From sequence record PZ445551.1: a DNA stretch of 64,000 nucleotides, one strand, 5' to 3'. Position numbers and translations under genes: made by a program. The DNA is from a phage. Below, in pieces: positions 40,552-60,745 of this stretch; position 1 is the stretch's first letter, and every line of letters begins with the position of its first letter. The notes under the pieces were generated by a model. The model worked only from the letters and a program-made list of their open reading frames with translations. It ran no database searches and was not told where the DNA came from.

Positions 40552-41541
40552 CTATTCCTCCATACATTTAAGAATATGTGCAATGACAGGTATAGTCCAA
40601 CCGTTACCTAACATCTTATATGCTTGTGTGTTACTACTCACTTTAAAGTAATCATCTGGAACACCTTGTAAGCGGCAACACTCTTTAACCGTTAACTTTC
40701 TATAATGTACGCCTTCACTCAATTTTTCAAAGGCATCTAGATATCTTCCAGGTGGAATGTAGGCTAATAGTACGTCTTTAGGCACAGTCGTGAGGCAACG
40801 AGTTTTTTCACTGTCCTGAACTTCCAAACAATGTACCAAACGATCAGTTTTAGATGTACTACGTTTGCCATTTTCATTAATTCTACGCCCATATATTGCT
40901 GCCGGATAAAAAACCAGTTGTCTGCGACTCTTTTCAAAATACTGTTCTATATTACCACCTTTGGCATAATTTGCATCTATGCAATAAGCCTTATCTCTGT
41001 CTACAATACTATCATCTTCAATTATATCTTGCAACACTTCATTGGTAATCTCCCAGGGTTTTATTTCCCAGTTGCACCAGTATAAACGTTGTCTATTCTG
41101 TGCCGTGAAATCTGCGGAGTTAATGAATACGGGATCAACACCTAAGTAACTTGTGATCACGTTTTCCCACTCCATTTTCATCTTAACGTTTTCAAGCATG
41201 AACTTAACATTAGGATTAAACTTTTTAATATGTTCAAGAATTTCAACATATTCGAAGAATAGCTTAGATCGTGGATCTTGAAAGTTCAAACCCTTACCAG
41301 AAGAAGAGAAGCCTTGACACGGACTACCACCTAACAAAAGATCAATTTCTCCCCACGGGATATCCCATTCTCTCCATTTTGTAACATCACCTAACTGAAT
41401 AATATCTGGAAAATTTGCTTGGCTTTCAGCTACGGCAAATTTGTCTAATTCTGAAGCGTAATATGTATCTACTTCAATACCTGCACTTTTTAGCGCAAGC
41501 ATTCCTCCTGACATACCATCAAAAAGACTTAAAACTTTCAT
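40552..41541 (-). CDS. dcm: DNA (cytosine-5)-methyltransferase
   Basis: Motif I LFDGMSGG, motif IV GSPCQGFS, motif VI ENVKMK, QNRQRLYW, GNGWTIPV. Confidence 0.85.
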   Translation of the reverse strand: MKVLSLFDGMSGGMLALKSAGIEVDTYYASELDKFAVAESQANFPDIIQLGDVTKWREWDIPWGEIDLLLGGSPCQGFSSSGKGLNFQDPRSKLFFEYVEILEHIKKFNPNVKFMLENVKMKMEWENVITSYLGVDPVFINSADFTAQNRQRLYWCNWEIKPWEITNEVLQDIIEDDSIVDRDKAYCIDANYAKGGNIEQYFEKSRRQLVFYPAAIYGRRINENGKRSTSKTDRLVHCLEVQDSEKTRCLTTVPKDVLLAYIPPGRYLDAFEKLSEGVHYRKLTVKECCRLQGVPDDYFKVSSNTQAYKMLGNGWTIPVIAHILKCMEE

Positions 41542-46505: not shown

Positions 46506-46756
46506 TATTCTTCCCAATCGTTGTTACGAGCATTTTCAAGAACCTTGACAACTTCTGCATACTCTACAGCTAAACCAGCACACACTTCAGCTTGTTTTGC
46601 AATTGCTTGTTTAAAGAACATAGCGATTGCAACACTCTGTGTTGTGTGAATGTTATCTGCTTTAGTTGATACGTGAAGATCAAAATCTTCTTCATCAAAG
46701 GTGAGTTCCATAGTAACAATAAATTTCTCGGTCATAAAAATGCTCCTCTTAAACAA
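46505..46756 (-). CDS. hypothetical protein (83 aa)
   Basis: ORF in same-strand block. Confidence 0.5.
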   Translation of the reverse strand: MFKRSIFMTEKFIVTMELTFDEEDFDLHVSTKADNIHTTQSVAIAMFFKQAIAKQAEVCAGLAVEYAEVVKVLENARNNDWEE

Positions 46757-47258
46757 AATAGAAAGGTTGAGTTAAACCCAGCCTGTTTTTTGGGTCGTAG
46801 ACGTACCAAGCATATGCTGTCTTATCAGTACCACCTGCAACAAAAGATGGTCGTTCAGAAAGAACAATCAAATTTGTTGGTGGATTCTGTTTATGGAATT
46901 CCCTTCGTTTAATAGACTCTAGGAAACCAAGACGCAACAAGTATATGCAAACGTCTGCTTCTTTTAAGCTCTTTTGCAAGAACTCAAGTGCAAGTTTGAA
47001 TGGGGGATTTGTGATTATAATATCCGGCTTAGTATGCCATTCGTGGTTAAAATAATCTTTCCCTTCTTCTAACTCACAATATTCTGATCCTTCTGGAAAA
47101 TGTTGATAAATTGCAGCAGCAGCGCCTTTACACGGTTCTGCAAAAATAAAACCTTCTTCTTTAAGGTTATTAAAATCTATTACACTAAATAATGCATTTA
47201 TACATTTTTGTGGAGTAGGATAGTAATCAGTTGGTGGACGATCATACTTATTTGCCAC
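46749..47258 (-). CDS. small phage Dam-like DNA N6-adenine methyltransferase
   Basis: DYYPTP and IIITNPPF (NPPF catalytic motif); size typical of small phage adenine MTases. Confidence 0.6.
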   Translation of the reverse strand: MANKYDRPPTDYYPTPQKCINALFSVIDFNNLKEEGFIFAEPCKGAAAAIYQHFPEGSEYCELEEGKDYFNHEWHTKPDIIITNPPFKLALEFLQKSLKEADVCIYLLRLGFLESIKRREFHKQNPPTNLIVLSERPSFVAGGTDKTAYAWYVYDPKNRLGLTQPFYFV

Positions 47259-49661: not shown

Positions 49662-49686
49662 TTATAAAAGGGGCTTTCGCCCCTTT
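49662..49686 (-). terminator. hairpin + U-tract module between lysozyme and phoH
   Basis: GGGGCGAAAGCCCC then TTTTAT, then SD GGAGTG on minus strand. Confidence 0.5.
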
Positions 49687-49688
49687 GT

Positions 49689-50189
49689 TTAGTTATAAGC
49701 GTCTAATGTTCCAGTTTTAAGTACCTGAATTACACGCTCTGCGCGATTAGGCGTTTGGCGATACCATTTACTTTTACGTAAATTTATAGAGGCTTGAGTA
49801 TAATATGAATTACTCACTAAAGTCAAGCTATTTTTGAAAGATTCTGCACCTTTCAATCCCATTTGAAATACCATATTGATAATAGCCATTTTACGATTAG
49901 GACTTACTTTATCGTAAATAGGAGATAATATGGTACTTGAATGGATTTGTTGTATCGCTTTCTTTACGTCACTTTCAAAGATTCTTCTAGCTTCCGCTTC
50001 AGTAATAACTCCATTGGTTTTTCTACCTACTAAGTTATCAAGAATGCGTATAGCTTCTGCTTTATCTTTGAGTTTTGTCAGAAGGTGTCCAATACCAACT
50101 GTCCAATACCCTTCGGTATCAGGATATACAGTTAGCTTTAGTCCTTCATCAAAACGTAACATATCAAACACATCAACTACTTTAGCCAT
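49689..50189 (-). CDS. e: T4-type lysozyme (endolysin, GH24)
   Basis: MLRFDEGLKLTVYPDTEGYWTVGIGHLLTK and INMVFQMG, WYRQTPNRAERV align to T4 lysozyme. Confidence 0.92.
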   Translation of the reverse strand: MAKVVDVFDMLRFDEGLKLTVYPDTEGYWTVGIGHLLTKLKDKAEAIRILDNLVGRKTNGVITEAEARRIFESDVKKAIQQIHSSTILSPIYDKVSPNRKMAIINMVFQMGLKGAESFKNSLTLVSNSYYTQASINLRKSKWYRQTPNRAERVIQVLKTGTLDAYN

Positions 50190-50349: not shown

Positions 50350-50610
50350 TTACTCCGCAATCTGAGCCATGAATTCACGTAGTTCAGAAAAACCTCCTAC
50401 GTGGGTTAGCTGTTCACCATCTTCCACAAAAATCTGAGGAAATGTGCGTGGTAGAACACCTGTTTTCTCTAAAACCAGATTCTGAATCTGATCTAAAGAA
50501 TAGTCTTCATCTAAGGTAAGGTATTTAAAATCCTGTTCACGCTGTTCTAGTAGAATCTTAGCGTTAGTGCAGAAAGGACAATTTGGTTTACCGTAGATAA
50601 TAAAATTCAT
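50350..50610 (-). CDS. glutaredoxin-like protein
   Basis: Active-site KPNCPFC; start refined to MNFIIYG with SD AAGGAG. Confidence 0.7.
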   Translation of the reverse strand: MNFIIYGKPNCPFCTNAKILLEQREQDFKYLTLDEDYSLDQIQNLVLEKTGVLPRTFPQIFVEDGEQLTHVGGFSELREFMAQIAE

Positions 50611-50612
50611 TT

Positions 50613-51443
50613 TCACTCCTTGTTTAAAAGTATAGTTAAAGTTCTTACAATACCGCTATCAACACTTCGCGGATTTAAAGTAGGATCTGTTTTTAAATAA
50701 GATGTTGCTGGTCTGACTGCTTTTGAATTATAGGTTGAAGCAGATACAGGATTAACTGTAACAGATAAATCTATAACAAGAAATATCTTTCGTGCAAAAT
50801 CATACCAAGAAATATAATCTGCACCTGCATAGTGTACAATTTTACTATTTACACCATCTTTTACAAGTTTAAAAATTGTTTCTGCAAGATCAGGTGCATA
50901 AGTAGGACATGATAAATGATCACATACTACATTAAATTCTTTTTGACCACCGTTGTAGCGTTCCAACATAGTTTTCAAAAAGTTATGTCCAAATTCACTA
51001 TAAACAGAAGCTGTTCGGATAATAAGTGCTGTAGGACAAACTGTTTGTACTAAAGTTTCACCTAATTGTTTACTATAACCGTAGGTGTTCAAGGGGTTTG
51101 TTTTACTATCTTCTGTACCAGCAACATGCCCATCAAAAACATAGTCTGTTGAAATATGTACAAACTGTATCAGTAAATCATTACATGCTTTGGCAATGTT
51201 TGTTGCACCGTATGCATTAACATTTATACAGGTGTTAACATCTTCTTCAGCTTTATCTACTGCCGTGTAAGCCGCACAATTCACAACAACATCAGGCACA
51301 TGCTGTACAAGACTATTCATAACATCTTTAAAGTTGGTAATGTCTACATCACTTGCTTCAATCAAAATAACATCTTCGGGCGCAACTTTTGCCAAAGACT
51401 GTCCTAATTGACCTTTTGAACCAAAGACTAAAAATTTTGTCAA
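50613..51443 (-). CDS. rmlD: dTDP-4-dehydrorhamnose reductase
   Basis: GSKGQLG, AAYTAVDKAE, STDYVFDG, YGYSKQLGE; probable TTG start with SD AAGGAG. Confidence 0.88.
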   Translation of the reverse strand: MTKFLVFGSKGQLGQSLAKVAPEDVILIEASDVDITNFKDVMNSLVQHVPDVVVNCAAYTAVDKAEEDVNTCINVNAYGATNIAKACNDLLIQFVHISTDYVFDGHVAGTEDSKTNPLNTYGYSKQLGETLVQTVCPTALIIRTASVYSEFGHNFLKTMLERYNGGQKEFNVVCDHLSCPTYAPDLAETIFKLVKDGVNSKIVHYAGADYISWYDFARKIFLVIDLSVTVNPVSASTYNSKAVRPATSYLKTDPTLNPRSVDSGIVRTLTILLNKE

Positions 51444-51994
51444 AATATGATCTCCTTTAGTGTTTTGGCTTCCTGATCTTTTTGTGACAAGATAGGTTTA
51501 AAATTAATATCATTAAAGATTAAATCAAAACCCCAATCTATATTGATATCTGGATCATTCCACGCAAGACTACACTCTGAAGTCGGATCGTAATATTCTG
51601 TACATTTGTATTCAAAATCAGCAATATCACTAATCACAACAAAGCCATGAGCGAAACCAGGAGGAATCCAAAATTGTGTTTTATTCTTTTCAGATAAGAG
51701 AACACCTACCCATTCTCCAAATGTTGGACTACCAACCCTAATATCTACAGCAACATCATAAACTTCACCACGAACACAGCGTACTAACTTCCCTTGTGGG
51801 TTTTTCTTTTGAAAATGAAGCCCACGTAGAACTCCTCGGATAGAACGTGAATGGTTATCTTGGACAAAGTTTTGTTTACCTATGTATTGATCATATAAAG
51901 CCTGATTAAAACTTTCTAAGAAAAAGCCACGTTCATCTCCATAAACGTCAGGTTGAATGATCAACAAGTCTTCGATTTTTGTTGCTTGAATCAT
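51440..51994 (-). CDS. rmlC: dTDP-4-dehydrorhamnose 3,5-epimerase
   Basis: GDERGFFLESF, RGLHFQ, KLVRCVRGEVYDVAVDIR, IPPGFAHGF. Confidence 0.9.
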   Translation of the reverse strand: MIQATKIEDLLIIQPDVYGDERGFFLESFNQALYDQYIGKQNFVQDNHSRSIRGVLRGLHFQKKNPQGKLVRCVRGEVYDVAVDIRVGSPTFGEWVGVLLSEKNKTQFWIPPGFAHGFVVISDIADFEYKCTEYYDPTSECSLAWNDPDINIDWGFDLIFNDINFKPILSQKDQEAKTLKEIIF

Positions 51995-52006
51995 TTAATT
52001 CCCCTT

Positions 52007-52876
52007 TTATTTTAATTTAAGTAAATACTTACCGTAGTCTGTTTTACTTAAAACCTCTCCAGAACTTTTTACAGAGTCTAAAGTAATCCATTCATTTTTA
52101 AAAGCAATCTCTTCCAGGCATGCAACCTTCATACCTTGTTGCTTCTCTATTGCATGAACAAATTGAGATGCTTCCATAAGACTTTCATGTGTTCCTGTAT
52201 CCAGCCAAGTGAAACCTCTTCCTAGCTTACAGACACGTAAAGCCTTTTCTTTCCAGTACATCTCATTTATATCTGTGATCTCTAACTCCCCTCTAGCAGA
52301 AGGCTTAACGCTTTTAGCTTTCTGTATAACAGAATTATCGTAAAAGTACAAGCCTGTAATTGCATAGTTGCTTTTTGGTGCTTTTGGTTTTTCTTCAATA
52401 CTTACCACTGTACCTTCAGAATCAAACTCAACAACACCAAATCTTTCAGGATCATTTACGTGATACCCAAAAATATTAGCTCCACCATTCTTTTCAATAT
52501 GTTCTTTAGCAGAATCTAAAATGCTACCAAAACTCTGACCAAAGAATAAATTATCACCTAGCACAAGTGCTACAGAATCTTCACCAATAAAGTTCTCACC
52601 AATAATAAACGCTTCTGCTAAACCTTTTGGGCTATCCTGTACTGCATACTGTAGGGAAATACCAAAAGAAGAACCGTCACCTAGAAGATTTACAAAATTA
52701 ATTTGATCTTCTGGTGTTGTAATTATTAGTATTTCCCTAATTCCAGAAAGCATTAGGACAGAGAGTGGATAATAAATCATAGGTTTATCGTAAATTGGTA
52801 ATAGTTGTTTACTAACCCCTTTAGTAACTGGGTAAAGTCTTGTTCCACTACCACCTGCTAAGATAATACCTTTCAT
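52007..52876 (-). CDS. rmlA: glucose-1-phosphate thymidylyltransferase
   Basis: [36 protein letters not shown]. Confidence 0.92.
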
Positions 52877-52884
52877 ACTCCTCC

Positions 52885-53874
52885 TTAAACTTTATTTTCC
52901 CACCACTCTTTGTTATCTACATACCAATCAATGGTTGAATAAAGTTTTTCTTCAAATGTGCCTTTAGCTTTCCACCCTAATTCCTTTTCAATCTTATAAG
53001 GATTCACTTCATATCTTAGATCATGCCCAGGCCTATCTGTAACCATCTCAATGAGGCTACAAGCATCTGTTTCAGATGGATATACCGCATCCATATAATC
53101 ACAAATCATATAGATTACATCAATATTAGTTCTAGGGTTTCTGCTCCCAATATTATATGTTTCTCCAGATTTGCCTTTAGTTACTACTAGGTGTAATGCT
53201 TCTGCGTGATCGTCAACGTATAGCCAGTCTCTTACTTGAAGACCATTACCATAAACAGGGATTGGTTTATTCATTAAGATATTTGTTATCGTCTTAGGTA
53301 TTAGTTTTTCTGGATGATGATATGCTCCAAAATTATTTGAACAATTTGTTATAACTGTCGGAATACCATAAGTACGATGCCACGCTCTTACCAAATGATC
53401 GCTTGCAGCTTTAGATGCAGCATATGGACTACTTGGTTTATAAGGATTCTGTTCTGTAAACGGATAATCCCCTTCTTCCAGATCACCATACACTTCATCT
53501 GTTGAAATATGATGGAACATTTTAAGATTTGATTTATCTCCCATTAAACGAACAGCTTCTAGAAGATTAAATGTCCCAACAATATTTGAATTTATAAAAA
53601 CACTCGGTGATGCTATTGAATTATCTACGTGACTCTCTGCTGCAAGATGCATTATATAATCTGGATTAACATCTGCCACAATCTTAGCAGTTAACTGCGC
53701 ATTTGTCAAGTCAACACGACAAAACTTTACATTAGGTGTTTCTGATAAATTCCTAGGGTCTGAAGCGTAACCCCATTTATCTATAACGTAAATATCATTC
53801 TTAGTATTTTTAGCTAGGAAACGAACTACCGCACTTCCAATAAAGCCTAAACCACCTGTTACTAAGTATTTCAT
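52885..53874 (-). CDS. rmlB: dTDP-glucose 4,6-dehydratase
   Basis: [37 protein letters not shown]. Confidence 0.92.
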
Positions 53875-54068
53875 TTAGTCTCCTTCCAATTATTCCCTTC
53901 AGTAAAAATAATACCTTCATAAAACAACCATCTGGAACCTTTTTCAACAGGAACAGGAAGCTCTTCTTCAGTAAAGTTATAAACCTCTCTAGCATCTTCT
54001 AAAAGTGATGCAAATGTTTTTGGACTTACTGTTACGCGAGGAGCATTGATCAGTTGATCTAGCATCAT
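53871..54068 (-). CDS. hypothetical protein (65 aa)
   Basis: Start refined to MMLDQLIN with SD AAGGAGG; ATGA overlap with rmlB. Confidence 0.5.
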   Translation of the reverse strand: MMLDQLINAPRVTVSPKTFASLLEDAREVYNFTEEELPVPVEKGSRWLFYEGIIFTEGNNWKETK

Positions 54069-54081
54069 TCTACTATCCTCC

Positions 54082-54408
54082 TTACCAAACGTGTTGAGAA
54101 ATAATAGTTTCCGTTTCAATGTTATATTTTTCAAGAAGTTGTGCATAGGCTTCTTTTGCATTTTTATTTAGTTGCTCAAGATCTACAGCTACACTTCCTT
54201 CGCCACCTTCTAAATAAATGCCATATATGCAATAAGATTCATCAGCATCATAGAAAGGAGAGATACGACTTAAATCAAGACCTTCTTGTAAGAACCAGTT
54301 AAAGTCTCCATCAAATTCTTCTTCAATTCTAGGATCTTCTCCTACAGCTTCTTCCCATTTATTAAAAGGTGCGCCCTGTAACATACGCCATTCAATATTA
54401 GTCCCCAT
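54082..54408 (-). CDS. hypothetical acidic protein (108 aa)
   Basis: ORF in same-strand block. Confidence 0.55.
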   Translation of the reverse strand: MGTNIEWRMLQGAPFNKWEEAVGEDPRIEEEFDGDFNWFLQEGLDLSRISPFYDADESYCIYGIYLEGGEGSVAVDLEQLNKNAKEAYAQLLEKYNIETETIISQHVW

Positions 54409-54538
54409 TATCTTCCTCTTCTTCTTCAGTATGAACGAAACCTAAACCGTTACAATTCCAACAAGGAATAAATTGTTCCATACTAACAATAAAATTCCCA
54501 GTACCACCGCAGATAGGACAAATACTTACATCATCCAT
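54398..54538 (-). CDS. small zinc-ribbon protein (about 46 aa)
   Basis: Not in ORF track; CPICGGTG ... CWNCNGLG; overlaps downstream start. Confidence 0.4.
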   Translation of the reverse strand: MDDVSICPICGGTGNFIVSMEQFIPCWNCNGLGFVHTEEEEEDNGD

Positions 54539-54540
54539 TA

Positions 54541-54747
54541 TTAAAGCTCCTCAATCTTTTCTAACATCTGTTTTAACTCATTCTCTGTTAACAGAATTTC
54601 TGTGATACCATCATAAGTTTCTACCATCAGAGTAAAACATTTCTCTCCATCTGAACACACAAAAGCACCACCTTCATCTTCTGTTAAGTCAGAATTAATA
54701 TCTACATCAACAAAATCAATCATCTTTTTCTCCTTTGATAATTTCAA
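54541..54747 (-). CDS. hypothetical protein (68 aa)
   Basis: ORF in same-strand block. Confidence 0.5.
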   Translation of the reverse strand: MKLSKEKKMIDFVDVDINSDLTEDEGGAFVCSDGEKCFTLMVETYDGITEILLTENELKQMLEKIEEL

Positions 54748-54934
54748 ACTTGGCTACACCATTAACTATAATGTGACCGCAAGACATAACTCCTAGCCAA
54801 TGATCACCATTCTTTTTTAAACGTTTACCGTAAACATCACAGAAACCATTCTGTAATTCGGAAGCCTCATAAGAGGCTCCCTTTTCGAAAACGTCTTTGA
54901 AGTCAGAAATTAATCCAACACAAAGTAGTTTCAT
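54716..54934 (-). CDS. hypothetical protein (72 aa)
   Basis: ORF in same-strand block. Confidence 0.5.
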   Translation of the reverse strand: MKLLCVGLISDFKDVFEKGASYEASELQNGFCDVYGKRLKKNGDHWLGVMSCGHIIVNGVAKFEIIKGEKDD

Positions 54935-56019
54935 TAAAAGTCTAACTCCTCGTCATCACTTACATCTTTATTTGCTGAATTCAGTTTGTAAGCTGTAATT
55001 TGGATCTCCTGTGCTGCTGCTTGAATTTGATCTGGATTTAACCAAACATCCATCCAAGGCAGTGGACTTTTCTTCGGTGCACGGAATTTGTGTTTCATTT
55101 TCAGTCTGCGATAGATAGGCGCAGCATTGAAGTAAACCCAAAGTTTGAACAACTCTGCGTTACCACCAACGATAATCCTTCCTTCACTAAACAGATAGTC
55201 ACACCAATCTTCCTCTTGTCCAACTACCGTGTCAAGAATTTCTGTCAGAACGTCGATATTATCTTCGTATACTTTTCTCCAGACAGGATCTTTCAGCAGT
55301 GCATCAATAATAGCATAATCCATTTTAACGTGCAATAGTTCATCCAACATAATTTTTTGAATGAGTTTAGCTGCACCTACAAACAGTTGCTGCTCTGCTA
55401 AGGCAAATGTTGCAGCAAAAGATGATATGAATTGAATGCCTTCCAGACCGATAAGTGCAATCATTCCTTTCAGAATCAGTAGACGAAGGTTATCATCCTT
55501 CTCAATCAGACCTAGAGCATATTTATGCCCTGCCTCTGCCAGATCACTCATTATCTCTTCAACTATACCCATCCTCTGGAAGATTCTTTCGTTCTCCATA
55601 ATCTGATCGATAACTTCATTTGGATTAGGGATACACTGACGAATAATTTCAGAATATGTCAAAGCGTGTAAAACTTCCATTTCTGATTGCTTCATCATCA
55701 TTGCACATGCTTCGTTGTTGCTTAAAAATGGTGCAAACAAAGTGATGATTGATTTAGCAAGTGAATCATTTTCCCACTGGAAAGATAGGTTTTTGATCAT
55801 AACATCATAGTTGCTTTTAGAACAAGCTACGAAATCTTTTCGTGTCTGATCTAAGTTTACTTCGTTTTCATCCCAGTCTTGCTGTTTTTGTAGTTTGTAC
55901 AGACGATGCATTTCTGGGTATGTTACATTAATAGAATCAAAAATACCTAACTGTTCTCCCAAAAACACAGGGTAGAAACCTTCTTTGTAAGTGTCGTTGT
56001 ATAAGTTAATTGCTGCCAT
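54934..56019 (-). CDS. nrdB: ribonucleotide reductase class Ia beta subunit
   Basis: Length and C-terminal PWMDVWL...DDEELDF align with NrdB; adjacent to nrdA. Confidence 0.85.
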   Translation of the reverse strand: MAAINLYNDTYKEGFYPVFLGEQLGIFDSINVTYPEMHRLYKLQKQQDWDENEVNLDQTRKDFVACSKSNYDVMIKNLSFQWENDSLAKSIITLFAPFLSNNEACAMMMKQSEMEVLHALTYSEIIRQCIPNPNEVIDQIMENERIFQRMGIVEEIMSDLAEAGHKYALGLIEKDDNLRLLILKGMIALIGLEGIQFISSFAATFALAEQQLFVGAAKLIQKIMLDELLHVKMDYAIIDALLKDPVWRKVYEDNIDVLTEILDTVVGQEEDWCDYLFSEGRIIVGGNAELFKLWVYFNAAPIYRRLKMKHKFRAPKKSPLPWMDVWLNPDQIQAAAQEIQITAYKLNSANKDVSDDEELDF

Positions 56020-56027
56020 TTAAAAAT

Positions 56028-56048
56028 TCTCCTCAATAAAAAGGGGCC
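56028..56048 (-). terminator. hairpin + U-tract module upstream of nrdB SD
   Basis: GGGGTTTCGGCCCC then TTTTTTATT, SD GAGGAG on minus strand. Confidence 0.5.
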
Positions 56049-56063
56049 GAAACCCCTTGATGT

Positions 56064-56720
56064 TTAGCCTTGGAACACTGTTTTTGTTTCTGCCAAGTGA
56101 TAGTATAAATCTGCCTTGTTTATAAGAGTGTTGTATACCTCTTGACAAAAATGTTCTTCCTCTTTGTAACGATTCGCTGTTTCCCTGATCGACTTGGCTT
56201 TATCTTTTAACCAAGCGAAGTGTGCCTCTTCCTCTGTAGCGAAATAGCCTAAATGCTTGCTTTTGCTTCCAGAAGTTTTGGCATAAATCTTGCCATCTTT
56301 CCTAATATGCGCTCCGAGTAAGTATTTCCTTTTATGTCTCTTGGCATAACTTAAAAGTGTATTGATATAGGGAGGAACAAACCTACAATATTCAGGACAA
56401 TAGACAGTATTTCCCTCAAGAACAAGATCTTTGTCTAAAACAAAACCTTCGACATTGTGTTCTTGATACCAATTATCAAAATTTGAAAAAGTAAACCAAG
56501 CATCACAGACGGTAACATCTTTATACCCTGGTCTAATATCTTCCATCTTATATGCACGATGAAACATGCCTTTCCAAGCTGCATAGGAAGGGTCTATGAA
56601 TGTGTTAACCCTTTTCCCGTTGACAACGCCACCTTCCCACAATCTACGTTCAACATCCACAATCAAGGGGATTTCTCCCCTCTCTGTGAGAACAGTAACT
56701 TTACGTTTACCCTTCTTCAC
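56064..56720 (-). CDS. putative homing endonuclease (AP2-like DNA-binding segment) between nrdA and nrdB
   Basis: HLGYFATEEEAHFAW AP2-like segment; position matches intergenic homing-endonuclease insertions in T-even nrd loci. Confidence 0.45.
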   Translation of the reverse strand: MKKGKRKVTVLTERGEIPLIVDVERRLWEGGVVNGKRVNTFIDPSYAAWKGMFHRAYKMEDIRPGYKDVTVCDAWFTFSNFDNWYQEHNVEGFVLDKDLVLEGNTVYCPEYCRFVPPYINTLLSYAKRHKRKYLLGAHIRKDGKIYAKTSGSKSKHLGYFATEEEAHFAWLKDKAKSIRETANRYKEEEHFCQEVYNTLINKADLYYHLAETKTVFQG

Positions 56721-59004: not shown

Positions 59005-59265
59005 TTAATTATGCATATTTAGAACATCTACATCATAACCGCCACGCATCTCGTTATATAAGCCATTTGCGTATAGAAAACCTTCAAAATGATCTATACC
59101 TTCAAAACCTTTTGCCTTTGCTTTGCGGTCTGCTTCTTGTCTTTTTGGAGATAATCTTTTAGATGTATCAAGGATAACTGTTACATTGCAACCTAATGTT
59201 TCATCAAAATAGACTTCAATTTCACAGCCTTCATATTTATTACTTTCTGTCATTTGGCCTCTCAA
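59005..59265 (-). CDS. hypothetical protein (86 aa)
   Basis: ORF in same-strand block. Confidence 0.5.
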   Translation of the reverse strand: MRGQMTESNKYEGCEIEVYFDETLGCNVTVILDTSKRLSPKRQEADRKAKAKGFEGIDHFEGFLYANGLYNEMRGGYDVDVLNMHN

Positions 59266-59676
59266 TTAGAATTCAGAATCATCATCTCGTGATGGATCAT
59301 GTTCATTTCCGAAGTCTTCCATTTTGATATGAGAGCTACCCCAACCTGTAAAATCTTCTTCTCCAAAGTGCAAAATATCCACACCTTGATAGATTCGTTT
59401 ATATTTATAGTCTTGACGAACTGGGAAAGTATACAATGTAGTATTTGCAAACACCACACGTCGATTGTTGTTACTACGAATATTAACACCACGTTCTACT
59501 GTATAATGTCCATCGGTAGACATACCAAGCATTACTAATGCTGCTCGCAATGTAGTGTTATGATACTCGTGAGGAATTTTTCCTCCGTGCTTTTTAGCCA
59601 TTTCTTTCCAGATCGGTGTAGCCTTAATGGTAGACATACTTACGGTCGCCCAAATGGTTGTATTAATTAGTGACAT
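59266..59676 (-). CDS. hypothetical protein (136 aa)
   Basis: ORF in same-strand block. Confidence 0.55.
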   Translation of the reverse strand: MSLINTTIWATVSMSTIKATPIWKEMAKKHGGKIPHEYHNTTLRAALVMLGMSTDGHYTVERGVNIRSNNNRRVVFANTTLYTFPVRQDYKYKRIYQGVDILHFGEEDFTGWGSSHIKMEDFGNEHDPSRDDDSEF

Positions 59677-59773: not shown

Positions 59774-60745
59774 TCACCATTTTGTATGGTTAGTCAAAAG
59801 TTGACGATGTTGAATCCAACCACAGAAGTTTCCACTCCACAAACGATGTTTACGATCCATATGTGTAATACCTTCTTCCCAAGAGGAAGGGAACGGAGGA
59901 ATATTAATACCACCTTTCTGTTGTTTTAATCCTGACAAATCCATTTCTTTCATTGGCGTTGCCTGGTGTTCAAACGGAGATGCATGTACCTTTTGTCCAG
60001 ACAGCAAACGAGAATAGATATCCAATGCTTTATCTTTAGTATCATTCAACTTACGATAACTTACCTGAGCGCAACAAGAAGCTGAAATAGCTTTTGCTTC
60101 ATCTTCTGTCAACATTTTCTCGTTGGAGAAGGTTTCACCCAAGAAATAACGGATCATACCAGTTTCTGGATCTCGATCACGATTAACGTAAGGTGTATGC
60201 CACTCCCCTGGGAAAAGAAGATATGGTTCAGAAGATTCATACAGTTTTTTAATTTCTTTAGCAAGAGCCTCAATAGTAGGATCTGCATCAGCATCTACGC
60301 GCAACCACAAGAAGTTTTCTAATTCTGTAGTGGTTACTACAGTCTTCATACGCTGGAATGGTTCTAGTAGTCGGTTTGCAACCTGTTTATGATAACCAGC
60401 AAGGGCAAACTCTTCTGCAAAACGTGCAGCACTTAGTGCAGCCAAGTCCCACCATTCTTTTGCAGTGTAACCTGCATCAATCAGGGCATCGTGATCTGTG
60501 CCTTTATCTTGCATACCTGGTTGGTTAGCACCAAAACGATAAGGACGTGCTGGAGATTGCCGTACCATTTCAATCAGGGTTTTAACAGGGATAGCTCGAC
60601 TTGATGCGGCATTACGAGAAAACAAACGATGCGTCATCAACTCAGAGTGAATGATTCGAGGATATTCAAGTTCAAAGGTAACAATATCCTTACCTTCAGA
60701 TGTTTGAGAGTGTGCAATAATTTTTGCTGAAATAGAATCTGTCAT
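59774..60745 (-). CDS. thyX: ThyX-like (flavin-dependent thymidylate synthase family) protein, divergent
   Basis: IVTFELEYPRIIHSELMTHRLFSRNAASSRA aligns to ThyX core but reads THR where canonical motif is RHR; 323 aa, longer than typical. Confidence 0.6.
   Translation of the reverse strand: MTDSISAKIIAHSQTSEGKDIVTFELEYPRIIHSELMTHRLFSRNAASSRAIPVKTLIEMVRQSPARPYRFGANQPGMQDKGTDHDALIDAGYTAKEWWDLAALSAARFAEEFALAGYHKQVANRLLEPFQRMKTVVTTTELENFLWLRVDADADPTIEALAKEIKKLYESSEPYLLFPGEWHTPYVNRDRDPETGMIRYFLGETFSNEKMLTEDEAKAISASCCAQVSYRKLNDTKDKALDIYSRLLSGQKVHASPFEHQATPMKEMDLSGLKQQKGGINIPPFPSSWEEGITHMDRKHRLWSGNFCGWIQHRQLLTNHTKW

Follow-up and report, generated by a model that had tools for sequence, protein, structure and literature searches.

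A 64,000-nucleotide stretch of phage DNA (sequence record PZ445551.1; hereafter the window) carries, between positions 50613 and 53874, an operon of four rml genes whose predicted products make up the complete pathway to deoxythymidine diphosphate (dTDP)-L-rhamnose. On the basis of the analyses described here, we give an even chance to the reading that this operon supplies a cluster of four glycosyltransferase (GT) genes located elsewhere in the same genome and that the acceptor of the sugar is not DNA; the use of dTDP-rhamnose by the cluster is something that we infer. The window is 100% identical to Escherichia phage VivaForever (PP925843.1), a phi92-like member of the genus Justusliebigvirus in the Stephanstirmvirinae, and corresponds to positions 48201-112200 of that record in reverse orientation. 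The region is 99.1% identical to phi92 (also Justusliebigvirus), in whose GenBank record (FR775895) gp064-gp067 already appear as the four pathway enzymes; the two phages share these genes at one and the same locus (99% nucleotide identity), with no difference between the two systems. The complete pathway was described by Olsen et al. (2020), who proposed rhamnosylation of hydroxymethylated nucleotides, and the rhamnose pathway of these phages was remarked on by Maffei et al. (2021). The operon and the idea of DNA rhamnosylation are therefore both already known, and the feature is a rediscovery, although we found no paper that settles what the operon does. A DNA-modification study of the Durham collection, a preprint on the END nuclease, and one on E. 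coli HS make no mention of these phages. What is added here is a conserved four-gene GT cluster outside the window, a relative that has only rmlC and rmlD, and an RmlB-like dehydratase encoded inside the GT clusters of relatives.

The four genes are co-directional open reading frames (ORFs) on the minus strand, and their positions bear out both the four-gene operon and the transcription order B-A-C-D that a preliminary description of the window had proposed:

52885-53874, minus strand: rmlB, dTDP-D-glucose 4,6-dehydratase, 329 amino acids; TIGR01181, 444 bits against a cut-off of 365.
52007-52876, minus strand: rmlA, glucose-1-phosphate thymidylyltransferase, 289 amino acids; TIGR01207, 474 bits against a cut-off of 361.
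51440-51994, minus strand: rmlC, dTDP-4-dehydrorhamnose 3,5-epimerase, 184 amino acids; TIGR01221, 260 bits against a cut-off of 156.
50613-51443, minus strand: rmlD, dTDP-4-dehydrorhamnose reductase, 276 amino acids, TTG start; TIGR01214, 253.5 bits against a cut-off of 224.

The threshold for identity was the curated NCBIfam equivalog cut-off, which all four products exceed (E-values of 1e-75 to 1e-142). They share their families, their motifs, and full-length alignments to Salmonella structures with the bacterial RmlABCD (rfbBDAC) enzymes of Escherichia coli and Salmonella, RmlD aligning best to a structure from outside Salmonella (3SC6). RmlB keeps the GxxGxxG, S-T-D-E, and Y-x-x-x-K motifs in alignment to Salmonella RmlB (1G1A), RmlA aligns over its full length to Salmonella RmlA (1IIM) and keeps GGSGTRL, and RmlD keeps the GxxGxxG, S-T-D, and Y-x-x-x-K of 3SC6. 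In RmlC the counterparts of His63, Lys73, and Tyr133 of 1DZR (Salmonella numbering) are kept; the printed alignment stops short of the equivalent of Asp170, where RmlC reads SQKDQ. Judged by sequence, the gene set for dTDP-L-rhamnose synthesis is confirmed as complete, with its catalytic motifs intact. RmlA would convert glucose-1-phosphate and deoxythymidine triphosphate (dTTP) to dTDP-glucose, RmlB would dehydrate this to dTDP-4-keto-6-deoxyglucose, and RmlC would epimerize C3 and C5 before RmlD reduced C4 to give dTDP-L-rhamnose. The genes are separated by 8 to 12 nucleotides or else overlap by 4 (ATGA, TTGA); in TTGA, the TTG start of rmlD runs into the stop of rmlC. A separate Shine-Dalgarno sequence precedes each of the genes (for rmlD, AAGGAG 8 nucleotides upstream).

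Several features set the phage operon apart from the bacterial one. It belongs to a virulent phage, its order is B-A-C-D and not the rfbB-D-A-C order of the E. coli host, and it lies in a nucleotide-metabolism unit with no adjacent rhamnosyltransferase, flippase, or polymerase gene, whereas the host genes lie in an O-antigen cluster. Genes of the rml/rff type were present in 5,426 of 5,426 complete E. coli genomes, with a best nucleotide identity to the phage operon of ∼65.5%, and none spans 80% of the operon.

Can the rml genes nevertheless be neutral or decaying passengers of host origin, with no role in infection? Such a reading would fit the lack of a published phenotype and the facts that E. 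coli K-12 itself makes dTDP-rhamnose and that the phages grow on many hosts. Within the genus, however, the four genes differ from those of KKE7M by 44 synonymous and 10 nonsynonymous changes (ratio of nonsynonymous to synonymous change, pN/pS, 0.061) and from those of phi92 by 29 synonymous and 8 nonsynonymous changes (pN/pS 0.075). The dN/dS of rmlB against KKE7M was 0.022, that of rmlA was 0.07-0.10 within the genus, and rmlC has zero nonsynonymous changes within the genus. The operon is orthologous in the genus Phapecoctavirus (phAPEC8, ESCO5) and fully syntenic in ESCO5, whose Rml proteins are just 55-71% identical; there, pS was ∼0.8 (saturated) and pN was 0.22-0.30. Since synonymous sites are saturated, cross-genus dN/dS was not computable for most gene pairs, and within-genus pairs were used; conservation across two genera despite this saturation argues against a passenger, as do the intact motifs, a GC content close to that of the phage (0.34-0.35 for the VivaForever rml genes versus 0.37 overall), and the distance from any E. 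coli gene. The selection analysis effectively refutes the passenger reading, and the inactive host-derived remnants that the preliminary description had allowed for are not what pN/pS values of 0.061-0.075 indicate. The rml genes instead appear, from these substitution patterns, to be functional, phage-adapted residents under strong purifying selection. Justusliebigvirus and Phapecoctavirus are among the coliphages with the broadest host ranges and are often put forward for phage therapy, and the rml operon and GT cluster together cost them ∼6.5 kb.

The ESCO5 rmlB and rmlA genes (L009 4000-5879) have a GC content of 0.42-0.44, versus 0.36-0.38 for their neighbors and 0.35 for the two genes in VivaForever. 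The RmlA proteins of the two genera are 71% identical, and bacterial RmlA, at ∼66%, is barely more distant. These data suggest a xenologous or modular replacement of rmlB and rmlA in ESCO5.

What, then, would use the dTDP-L-rhamnose? Four consecutive GT genes (GT1 to GT4) are located at PP925843.1 129644-132820, ∼17 kb beyond the start of the window and ∼70 kb from the rml operon. They lie just upstream of the genes for primase/helicase and DNA polymerase I, with a conserved acidic ORF of 89 amino acids between GT4 and primase/helicase, and PHROGs places all four (4/4) in glycosyltransferase families. GT2 is a GT-A enzyme of the inverting type with a DxD motif and resembles the rhamnosyltransferase RmlT in structure. 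GT3 and GT4, which share 41% identity, are paralogous GT-B enzymes, and the model of a GT4 homolog (99% identical, pLDDT 94) predicts a GT-B fold of the GT4 type; database homologs with 78% and 99% identity stood in for the VivaForever GTs in these structural comparisons. Of the four, GT2 would most plausibly use dTDP-L-rhamnose. When GT1, GT2, and GT4 were compared with PDB sequences, neither sequence nor profile searches gave a meaningful match, and GT1 to GT4 have no transmembrane-grade segment (maximum 19-residue Kyte-Doolittle score, KD19, 1.21). In the BASEL records, GT3 and GT4 are both labeled "putative disaccharide synthase."

The preliminary description had recognized no glycosyltransferase in the window and had suggested that the acceptor enzyme could be among the ORFs flanking the operon or elsewhere in the genome. 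Our Pfam scans covered 80 unannotated or ambiguous coding sequences (CDS) of at least 100 amino acids across the whole genome, 25 of 38 families being listed in one scan. No GT family was among the matches listed for the window, and the annotated GTs all lie outside it. The second of the two suggested locations is the one that holds, in the form of the GT1-GT4 cluster. The flanking ORFs at 53871-54934 and 59005-59676 were rejected as GTs; at 68-136 amino acids they are too small for GT-A or GT-B folds, they have no Pfam match, and their PHROGs are of unknown function.

Directly upstream of the GT cluster lie a second lysin gene, whose counterpart in L012 matches Hydrolase_2, and a Ter-type cluster (PP925843.1 118297-128895) encoding a hydrolase, a phosphatase, TerC, a TelA-like protein, vWA-TerF, and TerD, with PRTase and HAD matches among its scanned CDS. 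L012 and the Klebsiella relative KP2025 both keep the Ter-lysin-GT order.

Comparison with relatives provides a suggestive link, at the level of gene content, between the rml and GT modules. The same two genera hold homologs of RmlA, GT1, GT2, and GT4 (∼55 and ∼72-77 records). At the syntenic site (OP617743.1 43398-44806), Klebsiella phage KP13-26 (Stephanstirmvirinae) carries rmlC and rmlD without rmlA or rmlB; small ORFs are still found at the position matching 53871-54934, and a GT2-like gene lies elsewhere in its genome. In Klebsiella phage KP2025, the primase locus holds a reduced GT set of GT1 and a GT3 ortholog. Every enterobacterial host produces the substrate of RmlC and RmlD through RffH/RffG for enterobacterial common antigen (ECA), and RmlC and RmlD catalyze the steps specific to L-rhamnose. 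KP13-26 thus appears, from its gene set, to depend on host RffH/RffG or RmlA/RmlB for dTDP-4-keto-6-deoxyglucose. Because this phage keeps rmlC and rmlD and the host makes their substrate, the conserved need would be the end product dTDP-L-rhamnose rather than the consumption of dTTP, and the idea of a dTTP sink is weakened. In two distant metagenomic phage contigs (L011 and L016), the cluster order is GT1, a short-chain dehydrogenase/reductase (SDR) gene, GT2, GT3, a small ORF, and primase; in L016 the SDR gene is followed by three extra small ORFs. For the SDR genes (L011 2667-3737; L016 4400-5464), the best full-length match was dTDP-glucose 4,6-dehydratase, with scores of 171 and 193 bits that fall short of the equivalog cut-off. 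Since a dehydratase-like gene lies there, nucleoside diphosphate-6-deoxyhexose chemistry would be physically inside the GT cluster of these relatives.

Four GenBank records of 146-151 kb are named "Campylobacter phage" A150, C3, B15, and A145 (MG065639.1, MG065656.1, MG065650.1, and MG065645.1) with Campylobacter jejuni as the stated host. The RmlA and GT proteins of A150, C3, and A145 are 98-99% identical to those of VivaForever, and those of B15 are ∼71% identical (Phapecoctavirus-like). These records are probably mislabeled or contaminant coliphages.

The picture left by these comparisons is of a conserved rhamnose-supply module with an rmlC-rmlD core that would feed a soluble GT cluster beside the replication genes, with a proposed acceptor other than DNA. 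The rml genes would be expressed from a nucleotide-metabolism unit that also boosts dTTP (nrdAB, thyX, tk, grx), and the dTDP-L-rhamnose would be consumed by the soluble cytoplasmic GT1 to GT4, which would build a short rhamnose-containing glycan. The preliminary description had deduced that a glycosylation target is made during infection and had listed DNA as the first candidate. A dedicated glycosylation system remains a sensible deduction; DNA as its foremost target does not stand. For the acceptor, we rank a virion protein first, as a tentative guess, and an envelope glycan next, as rather doubtful; DNA follows as unlikely, and a purely metabolic role comes last, as very unlikely.

The proposal that rhamnose is attached to a modified base of phage DNA and blocks host nucleases is that of the preliminary description and of Olsen et al. 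(2020). As a target, a hypermodified, restriction-resistant base is the least supported of those listed. The phi92-like phages are "exceptionally susceptible" to restriction-modification (RM) systems (Maffei et al., 2021), which argues against DNA glycosylation because global glycosylation of bases would block RM enzymes. In addition, known phage DNA glycosylation begins with a hydroxylated pyrimidine, made either by a ThyA homolog (5-hydroxymethylcytosine, 5-hydroxymethyluracil, or 5-hydroxycytosine) or by TET/5mYOX acting on 5-methylcytosine. No ThyA-type hydroxymethylase, 5-hydroxycytosine synthase, TET/5mYOX, or 2-oxoglutarate (2OG) oxygenase is among the families listed for the 80 CDS or among the annotated genes. 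Two enzymes of the window bear on this question:

59774-60745, minus strand: ThyX-type thymidylate synthase; Pfam PF02511 (Thy1), 37 bits against a cut-off of 24.8.
40552-41541, minus strand: C5-cytosine DNA methyltransferase, full-length; Pfam PF00145, 149.5 bits.

The ThyX-type synthase points to canonical dTMP synthesis with no ThyA-type hydroxymethylase, and no 2OG-oxygenase family was found among the scanned neighbors of the C5-methyltransferase. GT2 matched Pfam PF20691 (TAGT, a TET-associated GT) with 23.3 bits, below the cut-off of 27.5 and over 60 of 205 profile positions, and among the structural neighbors of the GT4 homolog the T4 DNA glucosyltransferases AGT and BGT ranked 16th and 32nd, behind many glycan, lipid, and small-molecule GTs. 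Phage genomes that encode DNA-type GT-A enzymes have been listed in print, and no phi92-like or phAPEC8-like phage is among them. The T-even, RB69, and TET-type systems of DNA glycosylation are alike in belonging to virulent phages that carry several GTs, in some cases along with nucleotide-sugar genes of their own, among DNA-metabolism genes, but they need a ThyA homolog or TET/5mYOX and give broad restriction resistance, and neither holds for the phi92-like phages. If DNA were the target after all, new chemistry would be needed, without a hydroxymethyl or hydroxyl precursor, and the modification might be a rare one confined to particular motifs. On the whole, DNA is disfavored as an unlikely acceptor.

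The annotated ThyX-like protein is unusually long (323 amino acids), with a weak Thy1 match over residues 22-170 and an RHR motif that reads THR. The genome also encodes an N6/N4 methylase outside the window and further CDS annotated as methyltransferases, and the phages are still reported to be highly restriction sensitive. One of these annotated methyltransferases (L001 25778-26257) really matches an XkdF-type protease family, and another, in the window (46749-47258), has no Pfam match.

Could the glycan be placed on the host envelope instead? Soluble GTs at the inner membrane face would then act on an undecaprenyl-pyrophosphate-linked or lipid A-core acceptor, and a host flippase and ligase would export a rhamnose unit that masks receptors in the lipopolysaccharide (LPS) core or ECA, thereby limiting superinfection or the loss of progeny on debris. 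Many of the top structural matches of the GT4 homolog (PglA, PimA, PimB, WbnH, WaaG, and WaaB) and of the GT2 homolog (GlfT2 and a PglI-like enzyme) act on polyprenol-, lipid-, or cell-wall-linked acceptors, although the families are huge and such matches mostly mirror the choice of members characterized so far. The receptors of these phages are the LPS core and ECA or N4 glycan receptor (NGR) glycans, dTDP-L-rhamnose is the donor for rhamnosylation of E. coli O-antigen and of the K-12 core, and a host-independent supply of the donor would suit a phage of broad host range. However, no Wzx, Wzy, GtrA, GtrB, GtrC, initiating transferase, or acetyltransferase is among the Pfam families listed, so that the host would have to provide all of the export machinery, and the system does not classify as a Gtr/O-antigen serotype-conversion system. 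The infection cycle is also short, and strictly virulent phages are not known to remodel the envelope in this way. If the host envelope is the target, it would represent a new strategy of superinfection control or receptor masking in virulent phages. Far less probable is a metabolic or regulatory role without any glycan, in which accumulated dTDP-L-rhamnose or diverted dTDP-4-keto-6-deoxyglucose would shut down host synthesis of dTDP-sugars, ECA, or O-antigen. The location of the operon in a dTTP-synthesis unit fits such a role, dTDP-L-rhamnose is an allosteric feedback inhibitor of RmlA-type enzymes, and the rmlC and rmlD of KP13-26 would be enough to divert the host intermediate. Yet the rmlA and rmlB of the coliphages would raise that intermediate instead of draining it, little thymidine would be saved because dTDP is recycled after transfer, and such a role would take no account of the conserved GT cluster or of the dehydratase-like gene that lies inside it in relatives.

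The acceptor that we place first, a virion protein, would have the glycan added to one or more phage structural proteins, as occurs in mycobacteriophage Che8 and in giant viruses. Outside their own group, the GT2 homologs in phage records come mainly from mycobacteriophages (>340), some of them close relatives of Che8, whose own GTs glycosylate its capsid and tail tube. A single cellular homolog was found for GT3/GT4; it comes from Burkholderia dolosa (JAIMDN010000082.1; L015 3025-8440; 35% identity, 411 amino acids) and is encoded downstream of an invasin/intimin-type adhesin gene and an ORF of unknown function (571 amino acids); the locus may be an adhesin-glycosylation operon, and we count it in favor of a protein acceptor. 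Like Che8 (gp108-110) and Corndog (gp38), the phi92-like phages have a GT cassette away from the structural genes; they differ in that GT2 is not orthologous to gp108-110. Mycobacteriophages, as far as is known, use host nucleotide sugars. Giant viruses (Mimivirus and the chloroviruses) provide a precedent for the virion as a target, with a virus-encoded pathway to an L-rhamnose nucleotide and several GT-A and GT-B enzymes, but they glycosylate capsid or fibril glycans, their hosts are eukaryotic, and they make UDP-L-rhamnose by a two-enzyme pathway. Several of the viral structural neighbors of GT2 in a BFVD search were from giant viruses, which is uninformative with regard to the acceptor.

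A number of points weigh against a rhamnosylated virion and against its supply by the rml operon. Among phages of Gram-negative hosts, none is known to have a glycosylated virion. Enzymes of the GT2 and GT4 types mostly build envelope glycans, and sequence does not reveal sugar-donor specificity. The co-occurrence of the two modules stems from closely related genera and amounts to few independent events, and the modules lie ∼70 kb apart. Orthology of GT2 with Che8 gp108-110 was rejected (BLASTP E-value of 0.1 or worse; hhalign against gp108, E-value of 0.088), and its mycobacteriophage homolog is Boomer gp102 and not the virion-glycosylating enzymes of Che8. A 2026 cryo-electron microscopy paper on the intact phi92 virion contains a single word beginning with "glycos." That phi92-like and phAPEC8-like coliphages decorate virion proteins with a rhamnose glycan through their own pathway and four GTs is somewhat doubtful. 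If they do, autonomous virion glycosylation, analogous to that of giant viruses and Che8, would be seen for the first time among phages of Gram-negative bacteria. If the virion is the target, antibody recognition and pharmacokinetics would be affected, as has been shown for mycobacteriophages.

The preliminary description had placed the operon between a glutaredoxin/lysozyme pair and nrdB, and this arrangement was found, with four to five small ORFs between nrdB and rmlB:

56041-56058, minus strand: terminator-like hairpin upstream of nrdB, AAGGGGTTTCGGCCCCTT then TTTTTATT; putative unit boundary.
54934-56019, minus strand: nrdB, which would open the putative transcription unit (ORF and record annotation).
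53871-54934, minus strand: four to five small ORFs of 46-108 amino acids between nrdB and rmlB; no Pfam match, PHROGs of unknown function.
50350-50616 (GenBank start 50610), minus strand: glutaredoxin, directly downstream of rmlD; Pfam PF00462, 45 bits; syntenic in ESCO5 and KP13-26.
49689-50189, minus strand: T4-type lysozyme, last gene of the putative unit; Pfam PF00959; followed by a hairpin and T-run.
49667-49686, minus strand: terminator-like hairpin past the lysozyme gene, AAAGGGGCGAAAGCCCCTTTTAT on the minus strand; putative unit end.

Because terminator-like hairpins at 56041-56058 and 49667-49686 bracket the region, the sequence suggests a transcription unit larger than the rml operon, running ∼6.3 kb from nrdB to the lysozyme gene. 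The upstream hairpin is followed by GAGGAG just before nrdB, and a scan for hairpins with T-runs gave nothing resembling a terminator on the coding strand from one rml gene to the next. In a promoter scan, sigma-70-like sites were not enriched (41 versus 44.6 in shuffled sequence).

An ORF for an HNH endonuclease (56064-56720, minus strand) sits between nrdA and nrdB, and ESCO5 has one there too. The relative PaulScherrer has an intein inside its DNA polymerase (L004 11227-11961). Elsewhere, the genome carries NADAR, Macro, DUF4326, Sir2, NAMPT, and PRPP-synthetase genes.

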